Assembly: GCA_963719085.1 (NCBI GenBank)
Contig: CAVRAL010000001.1
Coordinates: 1,024,001-1,088,000, forward strand
DNA: 64,000 nt
Reading direction: 5' to 3'
From: a candidate division FCPU426 bacterium
GTDB taxonomy: Bacteria; Oederibacteriota; Muellerivitia; Muellerivitales; Muellerivitaceae
This document shows, in pieces, positions 693 to 59,054 of this stretch. Each line of letters opens with the position of its first letter. Position 1 is the first letter of the stretch. The notes beneath the pieces were generated by a model. That model did no database searches. It was not told where the DNA came from and was given only the letters and a program-made list of their open reading frames with translations. Made by a program: the position numbers and the translations under genes.

Positions 693-3068
693 TTACAGAA
701 TGTAAAAGCCCGCGCCCAGGTTGAATGTGGTGCCCACGTTCTCGTACACCGAGTAGTATTTCAGGTTGAAGATGTTATCCACCCCGGCCGAAATATTGCC
801 GCCGTTAAACTTGTATTCAGCCTTGAAATTAAAGGTCGTGAAGGGATCAAAGCTCCCCTGCACGCCGTTGACCGTATCAGAGTTGTTCGAGGTGGTGTAA
901 CGCTTGGACTGATAGGTTCCTGAGAGGGAAACCAACCAATCTTGCGGCGTGAAATCCACCCCAAAGTTCACCTCATCCGCCGGGATATTCGGCACCTGGT
1001 GCCCGACCGAAGTCGGCTGGGCCGCGTTAACCGTGATCTTGTCATCCAAATGGGTGTAGTTCCCGAAGACATCAAAATCCGCATTCACCTTTTGTTTTAA
1101 TTCCGTCTCAATGCCGTTGATTTGCGCTTGGCCCGCGTTGAAGTACTGCGTGATGGTGGTCACGCCCGCAGTCGAGGTGTCGGCGTAAATCAAATTGGTG
1201 AGCGCGTTGTTGAAATAAGTGGCCGAAACGGTTGTTTGGGTCGGCAGCTCATATTCCCCGCCGATTTCCCACGCCGTATCCAGTTCCGGCTTGAGGTTGG
1301 GATTGGGAATAGTCTCGGTGTTGGTGCCTGACGAGAAGAGGTAAAGCTCGCCCGAGGTCGCGGGGTTAAAAGCCTGCCCCCAAGAAGCGCGCAAGCTGCC
1401 GTTTTGGTCCACTTTGTAAACCAAGCTGACCTTCGGGGTCACTTGGTCAAAGCTGACCGTGGGATAGGTCACTTCCGTCGACAGTAGTGTATTGTAAATT
1501 TTTCCGTCGGCGGAAATCCAATGGTCCCAACGGGCCCCCAAAAAGGCTGTCAAGGAGGGGAAAATTTTCCATTGGTCCTGCGCGAAAAGCGAGTCCGTGG
1601 TCTCGTTGTCCCCGTTGCCTTGGCTGGTATTCTCAACGAAATCGTTGATATCCGTCCAATTGGCGAAGGTGACGTTGTAGCTGGTGAAGGCCGCGTAGTC
1701 CCAATTGAACCCCACGATCACTTCATGGTTATCCAGCTTTTGATCGGCCTGGATGTTCGCGAATCCTTCCCAATCGGCCTCCATGTCCGTTCCCGTGCCG
1801 GTTCCGGAGAAAGGAGTCGTGGCCGCCGGAAGGGCCGACTCGGCGATATGCAAAGGTCCGGCCGTCCAAGCGAAACTGCCCGTCAGGTTTAAATCCGCGT
1901 TCTCTTTGCCCTTGTATTGCAGGTAGGACCCGAAGAAACCGTTCTTCCCCGGCGCCGTCAAGAACTGCGATTGATTAACGCTGATGTTTTGTCCCGTTCC
2001 CGCCAGGGACACCGAACCGTTCAACACCGTGGCCGGGGCGCCGGTCGTGGCGTCCTTCAGGTAAGAGGTCCCGATTTGTCCCGTCGGGTTGGTGTTCGGC
2101 TGGTCCCAATAGGAATAATTGAGAAGCAGCGTGAAGATCTGGTCCTTATCGGGCGTGAAGTACAACTTACCCGTATAGTTGTTATTCTCCTGAACCGTCC
2201 GGGCGATCTCCCCGATGTTATAAAGAACGGTGGTTCCGCTGTTGTTCGTCGTTTGATTAAAGCCAGTCACCACTTCGGTGGGGGTCAACCCGGTTTTAGC
2301 CGCGGCTTGGACGAACTGATGGTCCGTGTATCCATCGATTCCGGTATTTTGAAAGCCGAAATAATAGGCGAACAAATCGTTGGGCTTATTCTCGTAGCTG
2401 ATATTGGTGGTGCGCACATTGGCGCTGTTCCAATCCTCGCTGAAATTGAAGCTCTCACCCTCGGGTTCCTTGGTGATTACGTTAATGACCCCGCCCACCG
2501 CGTTTTTACCCCACAAGGCGGAAAAAGGCCCCCGGACCACTTCCACGTGGTCCACCAATTGGGAGGGAATCCGGTTCCAGAAAACCCTTTCGTTGCCCAA
2601 CTGATTCAGCTCAAAACCATCCAGCAAAGCGAGGTTCTTTTCATATCCGGGAATCCCCCGCAAAGAAACCGTGACACCCTGGCTGCCCTCACCACCCGAG
2701 CGGTCAACCTCGACCCCCGGTAAGCCGGTCAAGGCATCGTCAAAAAATCCGATATCCTTTTTGGCCAGATCGTCTTTGGTGATGACTGAAATAGCCGCCG
2801 GCGAGTCCAGAATTTTTAATTTACTTTTGGTCCCGGTGATCACAACGGCGTTCAAGTCGTAATTCGGAGCCGTGGTCCCGGAAGCCGGGGCCAAATTGGC
2901 GGCCACCGGAGTTTGCGCCGTGGCGGTCGTGACGTCCGCGTCAGGAGCCGCCGCGGCGTCACCTGCCCCCGTATCCGGATCCGGAGTAGGGGTTGATTCC
3001 GCCCCCACCCAGGACGAAAGTCCTAAAAATAAACCCGCGGTCAAAACGAATGAAAATAACTTAGACAT
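693..3068 (-). CDS. TonB-dependent outer-membrane receptor
   Basis: Signal peptide from MSKLFSF; TonB-box-like AVVITGT; plug motif VEVVRGPFSALWGKNAVGGVINVITK; NPNLKPE; C-terminal aromatic beta strand. Confidence 0.95.
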   Translation of the reverse strand: MSKLFSFVLTAGLFLGLSSWVGAESTPTPDPDTGAGDAAAAPDADVTTATAQTPVAANLAPASGTTAPNYDLNAVVITGTKSKLKILDSPAAISVITKDDLAKKDIGFFDDALTGLPGVEVDRSGGEGSQGVTVSLRGIPGYEKNLALLDGFELNQLGNERVFWNRIPSQLVDHVEVVRGPFSALWGKNAVGGVINVITKEPEGESFNFSEDWNSANVRTTNISYENKPNDLFAYYFGFQNTGIDGYTDHQFVQAAAKTGLTPTEVVTGFNQTTNNSGTTVLYNIGEIARTVQENNNYTGKLYFTPDKDQIFTLLLNYSYWDQPNTNPTGQIGTSYLKDATTGAPATVLNGSVSLAGTGQNISVNQSQFLTAPGKNGFFGSYLQYKGKENADLNLTGSFAWTAGPLHIAESALPAATTPFSGTGTGTDMEADWEGFANIQADQKLDNHEVIVGFNWDYAAFTSYNVTFANWTDINDFVENTSQGNGDNETTDSLFAQDQWKIFPSLTAFLGARWDHWISADGKIYNTLLSTEVTYPTVSFDQVTPKVSLVYKVDQNGSLRASWGQAFNPATSGELYLFSSGTNTETIPNPNLKPELDTAWEIGGEYELPTQTTVSATYFNNALTNLIYADTSTAGVTTITQYFNAGQAQINGIETELKQKVNADFDVFGNYTHLDDKITVNAAQPTSVGHQVPNIPADEVNFGVDFTPQDWLVSLSGTYQSKRYTTSNNSDTVNGVQGSFDPFTTFNFKAEYKFNGGNISAGVDNIFNLKYYSVYENVGTTFNLGAGFYIL

Positions 3069-3099
3069 TGCTAACCTCGCATCAATTTGATGAGCAACG

Positions 3100-3111
3100 C
3101 CAGTGGACTGG
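3100..3111. promoter_or_regulatory. Second copy of palindrome CCAGT-GG-ACTGG, about 31 nt upstream of the receptor start
   Basis: Identical to 399-410. Confidence 0.55.
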
Positions 3112-3215
3112 AAGTTACCGAATTTTTTCACTTCGTTACCGAGCGGAAGTCCGCGCCGTTTAAAATAACCACAAAACCAATGCCCCTTCTGCCAACCCGC
3201 CATAAGCTCCTTCGC

Positions 3216-3794
3216 TCAATTCAGCTGGAACAAAATCGGAAGCGTCACTTCACAGGCCACCGGCGCGCCGTTCGCGTCGCAAGCCGGGGTGAAAATGCCG
3301 GCCTTGACCTTTCGGATCGCGAATTCATTCAAAACCTCGTAAGTTCCCTTCAGCAGCCGAACCTCCTGAACCAGCCCCTGGGCGTCAATGTGGAGCAGAA
3401 GCACCACCCGGCCGTCGCTGCCCGACTGGCGGGCCACCGAGGGATAATCGTCCGGATCAATCAAATTCCCCACCCAACGGGGCTTGCGAGAGGTCTGCGA
3501 TTCGGGCACCCAAACCGTCTGCGATTGGACCGGTTCCAGATGTACTTTTTCCGGAACGACTTTCTCGGCGGCCTGGTGCCCTTTTTTCGGCAAGGTCCAT
3601 TTAAAAGGCGGCTGGGTCACAACCGGGTTCATTTCCAGGTCCGTGATGACGACCGAGCGATGCGCGAAAAACAACAGGTACAAGATCAAGAACAAAGCCG
3701 TGTGGACCAAAATGGAAAGGCTAGTTCCCGCCGCCAAGGGCTCTCCCCAGAACTGCGCGAAACCGGCTTTATTTGTCAGAGACAAGTGCGACAT
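3216..3794 (-). CDS. tonB: Energy transducer TonB
   Basis: TM with SxxxH motif (SILVH); C-terminal YPSVAR...GRVVLLLHIDAQG domain. Confidence 0.9.
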   Translation of the reverse strand: MSHLSLTNKAGFAQFWGEPLAAGTSLSILVHTALFLILYLLFFAHRSVVITDLEMNPVVTQPPFKWTLPKKGHQAAEKVVPEKVHLEPVQSQTVWVPESQTSRKPRWVGNLIDPDDYPSVARQSGSDGRVVLLLHIDAQGLVQEVRLLKGTYEVLNEFAIRKVKAGIFTPACDANGAPVACEVTLPILFQLN

Positions 3795-4170
3795 GGTCGA
3801 CCCCCGCTTGTTTAATCACATCTAAAGCCGACACCACCTGCTGGTAAGGCAATCTACTGTCCGCCGCCAGCGTGATTCGAACCCCCGGATTTTCCGCCAC
3901 CTCCTGGGCCAGCGCGGTCTTCAGTGCAGCCAAGTCCGTCTTGTCTTTTCTCAAGTAAACTTGGCCCTTGTCGTCGATGGAAACAGAAAGGGTCGGAGCC
4001 GCCGGACTGTCCCCCGTTTCGGTTTTCGGCAAATTGATCTTGAGGCTCGCCTCCGACACGAAAGTTCCCGCCACCATGAAAATAATCAAAAGTACCAGCA
4101 TGATGTCCACCATCGGGGTGACATTGATGCCGGTCACCGTGCCATCTTCTTCGATATAATTTGAGCTCAT
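3769..4170 (-). CDS. exbD: Biopolymer transporter ExbD/TolR
   Basis: INVTPMVDIMLVLLIIFMV motif. Confidence 0.95.
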   Translation of the reverse strand: MSSNYIEEDGTVTGINVTPMVDIMLVLLIIFMVAGTFVSEASLKINLPKTETGDSPAAPTLSVSIDDKGQVYLRKDKTDLAALKTALAQEVAENPGVRITLAADSRLPYQQVVSALDVIKQAGVDHVALVSDK

Positions 4171-4225: not shown

Positions 4226-4915
4226 TCAAGAAACGGCCGCCGGATGCCGTCCCTCCACTTTTTGCTGGCTCTTGATGGCGCGGCGCAAAAGTCCCTCACT
4301 CTCATCCCGGAGATAAACCTGAAGCAGATGGATCAGGCTTTGGGTATTCGCGATCTTTTTGCGCAAACTGGTTTGGAAAACGTTGTTGGCCACCACCGCC
4401 GGAATCGCCACGAAAATCCCGAAGGCTGTGGCGATGAGCGCCGAGGAAATGCCCGCCATCACCACCGAAACTCCGGAGTTGCCGCTGACCGCCAGGTCAT
4501 TGAAAGCCTTGATGATTCCCAGCACTGTCCCCAAAAGTCCGACAAAGGGGGCGTTGTTGCCCAGGGTTCCCAAGATGATGAGGTGTTTTTCCAACCGGTT
4601 TCGCTCAAGCACCAGGCGGGAAGTCATGGCCTCTTCCACCGAAGCGTAGCCCTTATGCAGATGGGTCAATCCCGCCAAGGCCACATGGGCTTCCACACCG
4701 GAAGCTTTTTTCACCGTTTCTTTCGCTCCGTTTAAATTCCCCTTTTCGAGGAAATCCGAAAGCTTGTCCAAAAGCTGGGAGAAATCCACCGCGCTGGCCT
4801 TAAATACCCGCCAACGCTCAAAAATCACACCCAAGGAAAGCACGCTGGCGGCCACCAGCGTCCACAAGGCCCAAACATCCCCGGCCAAAGCCAGTTTTTT
4901 GAATAGTTCCGTCAT
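4226..4915 (-). CDS. exbB: MotA/TolQ/ExbB proton channel
   Basis: APFVGLLGTVLGII and ALIATAFGIFVAIPA motifs; start moved to ATG behind AGGAG. Confidence 0.95.
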   Translation of the reverse strand: MTELFKKLALAGDVWALWTLVAASVLSLGVIFERWRVFKASAVDFSQLLDKLSDFLEKGNLNGAKETVKKASGVEAHVALAGLTHLHKGYASVEEAMTSRLVLERNRLEKHLIILGTLGNNAPFVGLLGTVLGIIKAFNDLAVSGNSGVSVVMAGISSALIATAFGIFVAIPAVVANNVFQTSLRKKIANTQSLIHLLQVYLRDESEGLLRRAIKSQQKVEGRHPAAVS

Positions 4916-4961
4916 AAGTCCGCTCCTTTTAGGTCTTGCCCGAAAAAACCGGGCTGACAAC

Positions 4962-4994
4962 AAAAAACCCGAACCGCTTTCAAACGGTTCGGGT
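4962..4994 (-). terminator. Intrinsic terminator of riboswitch unit 3
   Basis: ACCCGAACCG-loop-CGGTTCGGGT followed by T-run on minus strand. Confidence 0.85.
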
Positions 4995-5017
4995 CATGAA
5001 ATAAATCATTGCCTTCA

Positions 5018-5104
5018 AACCGCTTTAGTTCCCGATTCGCCCAAGGGTTGAAACCTCAAACCTTGGAGCCGGCTGGGGGCAAGTTGGTACTTAAATCCCG
5101 CCGT
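5018..5104 (-). ncRNA. SAM-II-like aptamer, copy 3 (most downstream)
   Basis: CGGCGGG-ATTT-AAGTACCAAC-TTGC-CCCCAGCCG-hairpin-GGAACTAAAGCGGT. Confidence 0.65.
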
Positions 5105-5117
5105 AAAAATAATCCGT

Positions 5118-5163
5118 AAAAAAAAAATCCCAAAACCACTTCTTGTTGAAGCGGGTTGGGATT
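5118..5163 (-). terminator. Intrinsic terminator of riboswitch unit 2
   Basis: AATCCCAA-CCCGCTTC-loop-GAAGTGG-TTTTGGGATT followed by a long T-run. Confidence 0.75.
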
Positions 5164-5185
5164 CCGGATCGTCCGATAATCTTGT

Positions 5186-5258
5186 TCCGCTTTAGCGCCC
5201 TGTTTATCCCCTCTCGGGGGATACGGCCGGGGCAAGTAGGTCAACAAAGCCTCGCCGG
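5186..5258 (-). ncRNA. SAM-II-like aptamer, copy 2
   Basis: CGGCGAGG-CTTT-GTTGACCTAC-TTGC-CCCGGCCG-hairpin-GGGCGCTAAAGCGGA. Confidence 0.65.
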
Positions 5259-5359
5259 TGTTCCAATCCTCCCAAAATTCATCAGCCGGAGGTTGAAACC
5301 ACACCCGCTTCGATTCGGAGCGGGAAAAAGCTTAAATTTAAGGGTTTTTCGCCATAAAC

Positions 5360-5395
5360 AAAAAACCCGGGCCGCTTTAAAAGCGGTCCGGGTTT
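5360..5395 (-). terminator. Intrinsic terminator of riboswitch unit 1
   Basis: AAACCCGGACCGCTTT-T-AAAGCGGCCCGGGTTTTTT. Confidence 0.85.
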
Positions 5396-5421
5396 AGGGA
5401 TTACTCTCTAACTCGTTCGAC

Positions 5422-5488
5422 ACCGCTTTAGCTCACTGTTCGACCCGAAGGTCACGCCGGAGCAAGTTGGAACTTAAAGCCCGCGCTT
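5422..5488 (-). ncRNA. SAM-II-like aptamer, copy 1 (promoter-proximal)
   Basis: GCGCGGG-CTTT-AAGTTCCAAC-TTGC-TCCGGCGT-GACC(TTCG)GGTC-GAACAGTGAGCTAAAGCGGT. Confidence 0.65.
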
Positions 5489-5499
5489 GATGCTTTTGA

Positions 5500-5528
5500 A
5501 ATTTATTTCAATCGACGAAAAATGTCAA
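5500..5528 (-). promoter_or_regulatory. Sigma70-type promoter for the riboswitch leader/exbB operon
   Basis: TTGACA-17 nt-TAAATT immediately before aptamer 1. Confidence 0.7.
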
Positions 5529-5554: not shown

Positions 5555-6283
5555 CTAACCGTTGGCCGCGCAAACCGCTTCCGACAAAACCTGAACCCGT
5601 CCCTGACCGCAAGCCGGACAATCCGGGTTTCGCTTCGGAACCATCGTTCGAATCCGCCGTTGCGCCGCGTCCACTTTGAAAAGCCGCAAGGGGCCCTTTC
5701 CTTGCCCCAGACGCCTCGCTTCCCGAGCCACCCAATAGCCGATCGACTGCGAAAAGGCGCCTAAGACGCCCGCTTCCTGGCAAGTCGGCATGGCGAAAGG
5801 CGGGGGAATTTTCGGCAGAAGACATCGCAGGCAAGCCGTTTGGCCCGGCCGAACGCCGAGCACTTGGCCTTCCAGCTTCACCACGCCCGCGTGCACATAG
5901 GGCTTGTCGAGTTTGACGCACCAGTCGTTCAAGAAAAATTTCTTTTCCAACCGATCAAGCCCGTCAACGACCAAGTCATATTGGGGAAGATTTTCTTTCA
6001 AACTTTCGGCCGTCATCATTCCCTCAAGGGGAATAATCTTAGTCTTAGGAAAACGGGAGTTCAGATAATCTCGGGCCGCCGCGACCTTGGGCCGCCCCAC
6101 ATCTTGGGCGGCGTAAAGGATTTGACGATGTAAGTTGGAAAGTTCTACTTTGTCAAAATCCATCAATCCCAAGGTTCCCACCCCGGCTTCGGCCAAGGCC
6201 AAGCCCGAAGGGCATCCCAGCCCTCCCACACCCACGATTAAAATTTTTAAATCGCTGAAATTCCTCAAAGTCACCCGCTCCAC
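5555..6283 (-). CDS. ThiF/MoeB/HesA E1-like adenylyltransferase lacking the N-terminal RYSRQ segment
   Basis: GVGGLG, DFDKVELSNLHRQ, CLRC and CPAC zinc motifs, candidate active Cys in PTCQEAG. Confidence 0.9.
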   Translation of the reverse strand: MERVTLRNFSDLKILIVGVGGLGCPSGLALAEAGVGTLGLMDFDKVELSNLHRQILYAAQDVGRPKVAAARDYLNSRFPKTKIIPLEGMMTAESLKENLPQYDLVVDGLDRLEKKFFLNDWCVKLDKPYVHAGVVKLEGQVLGVRPGQTACLRCLLPKIPPPFAMPTCQEAGVLGAFSQSIGYWVAREARRLGQGKGPLRLFKVDAAQRRIRTMVPKRNPDCPACGQGRVQVLSEAVCAANG

Positions 6284-12858: not shown

Positions 12859-12979
12859 CTCTCATCGACCCCGGCCTAAAGCCGGAGCAGGAATTGGCAC
12901 CTAGCAATTCCCCCCCTACGGGGGAAATCCGGTTGCCGTGGTTTCATAGGGCCTGTCCCTCCACCACTCTGGATAAGAG
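12859..12979 (-). ncRNA. SAM-I (S-box) riboswitch
   Basis: CTCTTATCCAGAG-TGGTGGAGGGACAGGCCCTATGAAACCAC-GGCAACC...GGTGCCAATTCC...GATGAGAG. Confidence 0.97.
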
Positions 12980-58811: not shown

Positions 58812-58887
58812 TGGAGGCGGCAGGCGGATTTGAACCGCCGAATCGCGGTTTTGCAGACCGCTCCCTTAACCACTTGGGTATGCCGCC
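58812..58887 (-). tRNA. tRNA-Cys(GCA)
   Basis: GGCGGCA...GCGGT-CTGCAAA-ACCGC...TGCCGCCTCCA. Confidence 0.97.

Positions 58888-58979: not shown

Positions 58980-59054
<75 letters not shown>

Follow-up and report, generated by a model that had tools for sequence, protein, structure and literature searches.

The exbB leader and its operon

In a 64-kb stretch of DNA from a candidate division FCPU426 bacterium (contig CAVRAL010000001.1, positions 1,024,001 to 1,088,000; hereafter the window), an operon for TonB-dependent uptake is preceded by a leader at 5528-4916 on the minus strand, in which a promoter-like site is followed by three diverged copies (units) of one RNA element, each of them followed in turn by a G+C-rich hairpin and a run of U. 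We are highly confident that this feature is real and that the element is a cis-regulator of the riboswitch type. The leader and the operon behind it are made up as follows, with bit scores referring to the covariance model R1 described below.

5500-5528, minus strand: promoter-like site TTGACA-17-TAAATT, agreeing with 10 of 12 consensus positions; predicted transcription start a few bases 5' of unit 1
5421-5487, minus strand: putative aptamer of unit 1, subtype B; 68.5 bits, and found in alignments
5394-5411, minus strand: spacer hairpin between aptamer 1 and terminator 1, from folds; enclosed by the predicted antiterminator
5360-5392, minus strand: terminator 1, from folding; stem 5392-5366, U-run 5365-5360
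5185-5258, minus strand: putative aptamer of unit 2, subtype A; 71.5 bits
5118-5163, minus strand: terminator 2, from folding; stem 5163-5128, run of ten U 5127-5118, CCGCUU in the 5' arm
5018-5104, minus strand: putative aptamer of unit 3, subtype C (GGGAUUU), with a long P3 hairpin; 55.2 bits
4960-4995, minus strand: terminator 3, from terminator scan and folding; stem 4995-4966, U-run 4965-4960
4226-4928, minus strand: ribosome-binding site AAGGAG (4928-4923) and exbB (4915-4226, ATG at 4915-4913); Pfam MotA_ExbB, 1.4e-31
3769-4170, minus strand: exbD; Pfam ExbD, 1.6e-32
3216-3794, minus strand: tonB-like gene with a TonB C-terminal domain; Pfam TonB_C, 1.6e-12
693-3203, minus strand: TonB-dependent outer-membrane receptor of 836 amino acids (aa); Pfam Plug and TonB_dep_Rec_b-barrel

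The units share GG[C/A]UUU-N5-CC[A/U]ACUUGC[C/U]CC, a variable hairpin and then CUAAAGCGG, as established by repeat finding and alignment. With one mismatch allowed, the 12-mer core occurs at three places in the window (mean of 1.16 in shuffled sequence), and the 9-mer tail likewise occurs at three (shuffle mean 0.53); all of these places lie within the units. In unit 1 the 5' strand has no bulged A, a U is present in GCUCC and the tail region reads CAGUGAGC, and unit 2 carries a UUUGU variant that is also seen in unit 2 of the homologous leader L001. An initial annotation of this stretch had placed the copies at 5488-5422, 5258-5186 and 5104-5018. R1 returns them at 5487-5421, 5258-5185 and 5104-5018, and the same annotation was borne out as to the promoter, the stem and T-run after each copy and the TonB uptake operon, whose ExbB, ExbD, TonB C-terminal domain and receptor were assigned with Pfam and NCBIfam. 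No NCBIfam model, those for receptor subfamilies included, reaches its cut-off on the 836-aa receptor.

Terminators 1 and 2 were obtained by folding; a simple terminator scan listed only terminator 3 and an overlapping hairpin at 5368-5342. The CCGYUU that had been claimed for the 5' arms is found there as CCGCUU, CCGCUU and CCGUUU. The 5' arm of terminator 1, ACCGCUUU, is complementary over 8 nucleotides (nt) to the tail AAAGCGGU, and that of terminator 3, GAACCGUUU, offers a 9-nt complement to the tail when G-U pairs are included. When the RNA is folded only as far as the terminator loop, the tail pairs with the 5' arm in three of three units (-14.5, -15.4 and -17.2 kcal/mol), which agrees with the antiterminator put forward in the initial annotation.

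Two further items lie within the leader. A small hairpin, GCCCGG-UUUUUU-CGGGC, is found at 4935-4951 (minus strand) between the last U-run and the exbB ribosome-binding site. An open reading frame (ORF) of 82 aa at 5056-5304 was taken to be spurious, as it overlaps units 2 and 3 and a terminator.

A family of RNAs in uncultured bacteria

A degenerate pattern of the invariant core was scanned over 185,579 species genomes, where a few tens of chance matches were expected. It returned 55 loci, of which 36 contain the element (four overlap others, leaving 32) and 19 resemble chance matches, being from unrelated taxa and having neither P1 nor the GG after the tail. A covariance-model search, of the kind proposed in the initial annotation, was made with R1, which was built from 44 distinct copies among the pattern matches. 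In the window and the 32 loci together this yielded a family of 64 copies scoring 41.8-85.5 bits, about 20 of them without a match to the original pattern, and the chance-like loci scored at most 25.3 bits. The 32 loci come from 24 uncultured metagenome-assembled genomes, labelled as Elusimicrobia/Elusimicrobiota (12), Acidobacteria (3), Candidatus Firestonebacteria (1), 'Proteobacteria' (2) or unclassified (6). We found no prior description of the element in the literature on SAM riboswitch variants, Elusimicrobia riboswitches or sulfate-transporter riboswitch candidates.

The 64 copies are arranged in 42 leaders, 24 with a single unit, 14 with two and four with three (the window, L001, L012 and L014), so that arrays of two or three units account for 18 of the 42. 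The window leader itself is a tandem in the full sense, having three complete units of one class, each with its own terminator. Along the arrays the order of subtypes is conserved, with B first, A next and C last, and the arrays are therefore old and differentiated and not recent duplications. L001 is syntenic with window positions 8347-5067 at about 70% identity and has the identical three-unit order; the genes behind its cassette are not exbB but those of a porin and a sulfate-binding protein. A weak second copy (21.5 bits) was also noted at L003:4148-4238, with core CCGAAUUGC and tail CUAAAAAAGGA, and represents either a decaying copy or a variant with altered pocket-side nucleotides.

Covariation and the proposed fold

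Covariation was counted on A5, a model-fitted alignment of the 64 sequences. Since A5 was fitted to the structure, its pair counts lean towards that structure; the P1 changes (C-G to U-A and G-C to C-G) are visible in an unfitted MAFFT alignment as well. Stem P1 covaries at pair 2-96 (CG 36, AU 18, GU 4, UA 4), pair 3-95 (GC 45, CG 18) and pair 5-93 (CG 50, UA 9, UG 4). The P3 hairpin is present in all 64 copies, and all five of its modelled pairs change on both sides. The covariation score of 0.346 compares with 0.138 in shuffles, none of 500 of which reached it, and slid registers gave at most 0.114. The initial annotation had looked to covariation in P1 and P2: P1 does covary, as does P3, but the candidate pseudoknot pairs are invariant and covariation says nothing of them. 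An earlier RNAalifold run on the three window copies, which gave a nested fold without compensatory changes, is superseded by the 64-sequence analysis, and a local AAGU/ACUU hairpin seen in units 1 and 3 was dropped as a family feature, as subtype A does not conserve it.

Between and beside the stems lies a near-invariant unpaired core consisting of UUUAA, CCAACUUGC, (G/A)AACAGGG and GCUAAAGCGG. The bases A192 and A193 follow P3 in 64 of 64 copies and are themselves followed by GGGnGC-U-AAA, and UUU, UUG and U-AAA are each kept in 61-64 of the 64. Read from 5' to 3', the fold that we propose would comprise the short stem P1, a strand that ends in UUUAA and occupies the P2 groove, a variable turn, CCAACUUG as the descending half of P2, the 3' side of P1, the variable hairpin P3, an A-rich linker GAACA and finally GGGnGC-U-AAA-GC-GG as the ascending strand of P2 and P2a. 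Where UUUAA and CCAAC are otherwise separated by three variable bases, some copies have an insert of two hairpins, 54-57 nt in total, a tolerance that is expected of a turn. The copies concerned, all of subtype A with the insert between UUUAA and CCAACUUGC, are:

L024:4164-4278
L027:5043-5179, minus strand
L052:4885-5011, minus strand

The insert-bearing copy of L027 has UC in place of CC.

One pair of columns bears on the path of the tail. Column 88 is the third position of the C-run and column 199 the n of GGGnGC. A U at column 88 goes with A (11 copies) or G (one copy) at column 199, an A at column 88 goes with U (two copies), and a C at column 88 goes with any base (50 copies). This pattern fits a tail that runs along, or pairs with, the strand of the C-run. 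An alternative pseudoknot, GCUUUA:UAAAGC, is possible on paper; column 10 is A in 14 of the 64 copies, G in one and U in one, and its partner G is invariant.

It is highly improbable that the units are mere repeated terminators, intergenic repeats or a mobile repeat element without any sensing function. They are direct repeats with strong hairpins and U-runs, and the whole three-unit cassette stands before one operon in the window and another in L001. However, P1 and P3 covary, preserving the structure as the sequence drifts, the unpaired core does not change from phylum to phylum and the B-A-C order is conserved. Moreover, the units are always found on the sense strand upstream of sulfur genes, and the 64-kb window has no copies elsewhere.

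The expression platform

A terminator is found within 75 nt 3' of 54 of the 64 copies; one further copy lies at a contig end and is not assessable. The spacing is nearly constant, with the U-run 48-61 nt from the reference point, and CCGC, the complement of the invariant tail GCGG, is present in 50 of the 54 terminator 5' arms. The longest complement between tail and arm averages 6.1 nt, as against 4.0 nt for shuffled tails. The conserved 3' part of the element therefore has a possible partner in the 5' arm of the intrinsic terminator behind it. As the tail can either sit in the aptamer, leaving the terminator to form, or block the terminator, the arrangement is that of an OFF switch. In the window the ribosome-binding site lies at least 32 nt beyond the last U-run, and there is no overlap of P2a with the Shine-Dalgarno sequence of the kind seen in SAM-V. 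A spacer hairpin like that at 5394-5411 recurs in many of the homologous units, often as GUUUAAGAG...CUCCUAAAC. The copies recorded as having no detectable terminator are:

L001:3231-3313
L024:5114-5185
L027:3997-4068, minus strand
L012:4410-4503
L046:4205-4277
copies in L007, L009 and L034

Several of these share the tail GCGGUCUUCG, which is able to pair with a downstream CGAAGACC around a hairpin that has no U-run, and they may use a different expression platform.

Genes downstream of the element

Scans with Pfam and NCBIfam show that the ORFs downstream of the loci make up a sulfur-acquisition regulon. Phosphate-type porins are followed by a sulfate ATP-binding cassette (ABC) transporter made up of the binding protein (558 bits against a cut-off of 288), CysT, CysW and CysA. 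MetY, an O-acetylhomoserine sulfhydrylase (675 bits against a cut-off of 495), occurs with MetX. Other downstream genes encode CysK, a CysE-like acetyltransferase, a taurine/sulfonate-like ABC ATPase, a 1-Cys-type peroxiredoxin, a family 2A encapsulin shell protein, DsrE-like proteins and DUF3034. The ExbB-ExbD-TonB-receptor set of the window is again found downstream in L046 and L047. The three Acidobacteria leaders precede small ORFs without a family. The link to sulfur that had been suggested for the window alone is therefore seen across the family, where sulfate uptake, cysteine and homocysteine synthesis and sulfur-limitation functions predominate. This picture fits what is known elsewhere: in Pseudomonas the response to sulfate starvation includes a 1-Cys peroxiredoxin and a TonB receptor, and in a cyanobacterium sulfur starvation induces the SrpI encapsulin. 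Since the family controls a sulfur-acquisition regulon, its ligand should signal sulfur sufficiency.

Relation to known riboswitch classes

Rfam was searched over the whole window with the gathering threshold and, with E<=10, over 801 nt at the leader and over 83 nt of unit 2; neither the 801 nt nor the 83 nt was matched by a riboswitch model of any kind. Matches to NsiR1, sraL and a CRISPR repeat in the leader were dropped as chance-level, all being on terminator hairpins. ANTAR, T-box and leader-peptide attenuation were likewise dropped, there being no family match and the leader ORF having been judged spurious. The Rfam model of SAM-V is RF01826.

By element order, the nearest known counterpart is SAM-V, a riboswitch for S-adenosylmethionine (SAM) of the metY/bhmT type in marine bacteria. 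Its structure 6FZ0 (Huang and Lilley 2018, PMC6061858) runs from P1 through a third strand U8 U9 U10, a 3-nt turn, the descending P2 strand A18 U19 U20 G21 and the descending P1 strand to the P3 stem-loop, after which come A40-A42 in the minor groove of P1, the ascending P2 strand with G-C pairs, the bulged U47, A48 A49 A50 and a two-base-pair P2a made by nucleotides 14-15. U47 pairs with the adenine of SAM, the amino-acid end is held by A50, and O4 of U9 and of U20 face the sulfonium. In the fold proposed above, the new element has the same order of P1, U-rich strand, turn, P2 strand ending in UUG, P1 3' strand, P3, A-rich linker, ascending P2 strand with G/C pairs, U-AAA and two-base-pair P2a, and in both P2a is spaced 8 nt from the G. 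Both are linked to sulfur and methionine genes, and in both the binding of ligand would hold the 3' tail. The two differ in that P1 of the new element is longer and irregular, the equivalent of A18 is C, the element has no match to the Rfam SAM-V model and its platform is an intrinsic terminator, whereas that of SAM-V is the Shine-Dalgarno sequence. The new element is also found in hosts of the Elusimicrobia, Acidobacteria and Firestonebacteria type, with a regulon centred on sulfate uptake and frequent arrays of two or three units.

The likeness to SAM-II, the metA motif (Corbino 2005, PMC1273637), lies in a promoter just before P1 and, in the proposed fold, in an H-type pseudoknot with the U-U-U of L1 in the groove of P2b and a pocket of U-U-G plus an unpaired U followed by A-A-A. 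Many SAM-II members have a terminator and act as OFF switches, and doublets with their own terminators are known (PMC9481103, in excerpt). The equivalent nucleotides of SAM-II are U10-U12, U18 A19 U20 U21 G22, U44 and A45-A48, of which U10-U12, U20 U21 G22, U44 and A45-A47 make up the pocket (Kelley and Hamelberg 2009, PMC3303485, structure 2QWY, in excerpt), and A18 of SAM-V, like A19 of SAM-II, backs the adenine that holds the amino-acid end of SAM (excerpts of PMC6061858 and PMC3303485). In the new element, a mapping made by eye from the residue names in these texts, and not by alignment, gives an invariant counterpart to 10 of the 11 nucleotides named for the pocket, and by the same mapping the counterparts of the direct SAM contacts of SAM-V (U47, A50, U9 and U20) are invariant. 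Unlike SAM-II, which has no P3 (PMC6061858), the new element has P3 universally; it has no match to the Rfam models SAM-II or SAM-II_long_loops, it occurs in other taxa and its genes are mainly for sulfate uptake and cysteine synthesis and not met genes. Triplets occur in the new element, whereas none is reported for SAM-II in the available part of PMC9481103. With its P3 hairpin and two-base-pair P2a, the layout is closer to SAM-V than to SAM-II. The description as SAM-II-like in the initial annotation therefore holds for the order of elements and the pocket nucleotides, which are collinear, but not for membership of Rfam SAM-II. Its premise that SAM-II controls translation is at odds with the literature, in which most SAM-II riboswitches act on transcription, and its premise that SAM-II usually occurs singly is at odds with PMC9481103, which lists 44 doublets of SAM-II, in some of which each unit has its own terminator.

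That same excerpt describes triplets in several other classes and explains tandem arrangements as pseudo-cooperative, that is, as giving sharper responses. The tandem doublets and triplets of thiamine pyrophosphate, cyclic di-GMP-I/II, glycine, molybdenum cofactor and glutamine riboswitches (PMC9481103, in excerpt) resemble the present arrays in being riboswitches of one class in series with their own terminators. In contrast to those pseudo-cooperative tandems, as far as this source was available, the present arrays belong to a new aptamer class and consist of diverged, ordered subtypes and not of near-identical repeats. The sul1 motif (Weinberg 2017, PMC5737381) is also an orphan cis-regulatory candidate before sulfate-transporter and serine acetyltransferase genes, but the new element, which no Rfam model matched, is a different family. 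For genuine SAM-II, 10 plasmid-borne metY/metX loci of Alphaproteobacteria were scanned with Rfam and none was found; an ar15 alphaproteobacterial small RNA (82 bits) was seen at L056:879-994, upstream of a metY-like gene on a Rhizobium plasmid. The sul1 motif is presumably among the Rfam models.

Neighbouring genes

Outside the leader and its operon, the following features were recorded. At the gathering threshold, the SAM-I riboswitch and the three transfer RNA (tRNA) genes were the only Rfam matches in the whole window.

5555-6283, minus strand: thiF/moeB-like adenylyltransferase gene, directly upstream of the leader
12859-12979, minus strand: SAM-I riboswitch; Rfam, 83.6 bits
53752-53825, minus strand: tRNA gene; Rfam
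58815-58887, minus strand: tRNA gene; Rfam
58983-59054, minus strand: tRNA gene; Rfam

The genes at 12809-9025 (minus strand) behind SAM-I encode a pyridoxal phosphate enzyme resembling threonine synthase, with an N-terminal zinc-ribbon-like match, an 81-aa NIL-domain protein, a ThiF-like protein and CysK, and look like a sulfur-carrier or homocysteine-type operon. With SAM-I and the new element in one sulfur gene neighbourhood, the genome would use two different RNA sensors there.

The thiF/moeB-like gene also lies directly upstream of the leader in L001, L004, L013, L024, L028 and L039 (68-70% nucleotide identity). It is the only recurrent neighbour, present at some of the loci, and no conserved regulator gene stands beside the 42 leaders. 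This argues against the possibility, which we regard as unlikely, that the element is the site for an RNA-binding antiterminator or terminator protein, a tRNA or a small RNA that reports sulfur status. Such a role would be in keeping with a ligand that is unproven, with conserved single-stranded segments that could equally be the footprint of a protein and with the conserved small hairpin between aptamer and terminator in each unit. However, genomes labelled as at least four different phyla have the same core, the fold is collinear with a pseudoknot already known to bind a ligand, and Rfam gave no match to T-box, ANTAR-type or other leaders.

Mechanism and ligand

On balance we favour the view that the element is a new class of the SAM-II/V type outside Rfam 15, and that each unit of the window consists of an aptamer and its own intrinsic terminator acting as a transcriptional OFF switch. 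The fold is probably of the SAM-II/SAM-V type, as the collinear order of elements suggests. With ligand bound, the tail AAAGCGG would be held in the pseudoknot/triplex, the terminator would form and transcription would stop. Without ligand, the free tail would pair with CCGC(UUU) of the terminator 5' arm to give an antiterminator, and the polymerase would read on. It is very likely, judging from the three terminators and their complementary tails, that the leader is an OFF switch in three serial stages. As three serial checkpoints, the units would permit exbB-exbD-tonB-receptor to be made only when all are open, giving low leakage and a steep response. As to the ligand, we lean towards SAM as the single most likely candidate, since the pocket nucleotides match those of SAM-II/V.

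Several observations weigh against this reading. The Rfam 15 covariance search gave no match to SAM-II (RF00521), SAM-V or SAM-II_long_loops, not even when the 83 nt of unit 2 were searched by themselves at E<=10. The candidate P2/P2a pairs (CC:GG with UU:AA, or CUU:AAG) form in 99-100% of sequences without informative variation, and the pseudoknot is therefore drawn entirely by analogy. The pairing of the C-run can be read as a long P1 (GAGG) or as a lower P2 (GGGnG), the counts suiting both, and columns 88 and 199 are unpaired in 36 of 63 sequences. At the equivalent of A18/A19 there is a C in 60 of 61 copies, so that the pocket may differ from that of SAM-II/V; a strong copy, L040:1360-1444, has A for that C with its tail unchanged. 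Nine of the 63 assessable copies have no terminator, mostly subtype C units that are last in their arrays in other genomes. None of the leaders examined precedes metK, metE or metH. Finally, the window already has a SAM-I riboswitch before the homocysteine-type operon, leaving no a priori need for a second sensor of SAM.

Part of this evidence would suit a different ligand. With the same RNA and the same terminator logic, a SAM-II/V-type fold may have been re-tuned to another metabolite of sulfur status, such as cysteine, methionine, homocysteine, S-adenosylhomocysteine, adenosine phosphosulfate or phosphoadenosine phosphosulfate, sulfide or thiosulfate. We hold this to be a serious alternative, though distinctly less probable. 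It is favoured by a regulon dominated by sulfate uptake and cysteine synthesis and not by methionine or SAM genes, by the use of SAM-I for the homocysteine-type operon in the same genome and by the C where SAM-II and SAM-V have A at one nucleotide backing the pocket. Furthermore, aptamer variants can change ligand, as with the spermidine-sensing variants of SAM-I described in PMC10853860. On the other hand, every nucleotide of SAM-V that contacts SAM directly has an invariant counterpart, an end product such as SAM best explains the joint repression of uptake, CysK and MetY/MetX, and different SAM riboswitch classes are known to co-occur in one transcript (PMC9481103, in excerpt).

More tentatively still in its scope, it is possible either that the SAM-II/V-type triplex was re-tuned to another sulfur ligand or that subtypes B, A and C all sense SAM with graded affinities, making the array a multi-threshold switch. 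We think it doubtful, though worth stating, that in either form the element would be a master RNA regulator of the sulfur-starvation regulon in several candidate phyla. If so, the regulon would span sulfate uptake and the TonB-dependent uptake of some sulfur compound, and would also cover an encapsulin of the cysteine-desulfurase type and peroxiredoxin.

Implications

The preferred reading, a SAM-II/V-type class that controls transcription through terminators, would extend the SAM-II/SAM-V structural group by one class, in poorly studied and mostly uncultured phyla. In model bacteria the sulfur-starvation regulon is controlled by protein regulators such as CysB. Here the preferred reading would mean control by RNA only of a full sulfur-acquisition regulon, TonB-dependent uptake across the outer membrane included, and an organosulfur compound would then be a fair guess for the substrate of the receptor. 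The invariant core with its single change beside the pocket would provide a natural test of the specificity of the SAM-II/V fold, and the ordered B-A-C arrays a natural system for the dose-response of riboswitches in series. With its clean gap between copies at 41.8 bits or more and chance loci at 25.3 bits or less, R1 could serve to mark sulfur-regulated genes in metagenome-assembled genomes.

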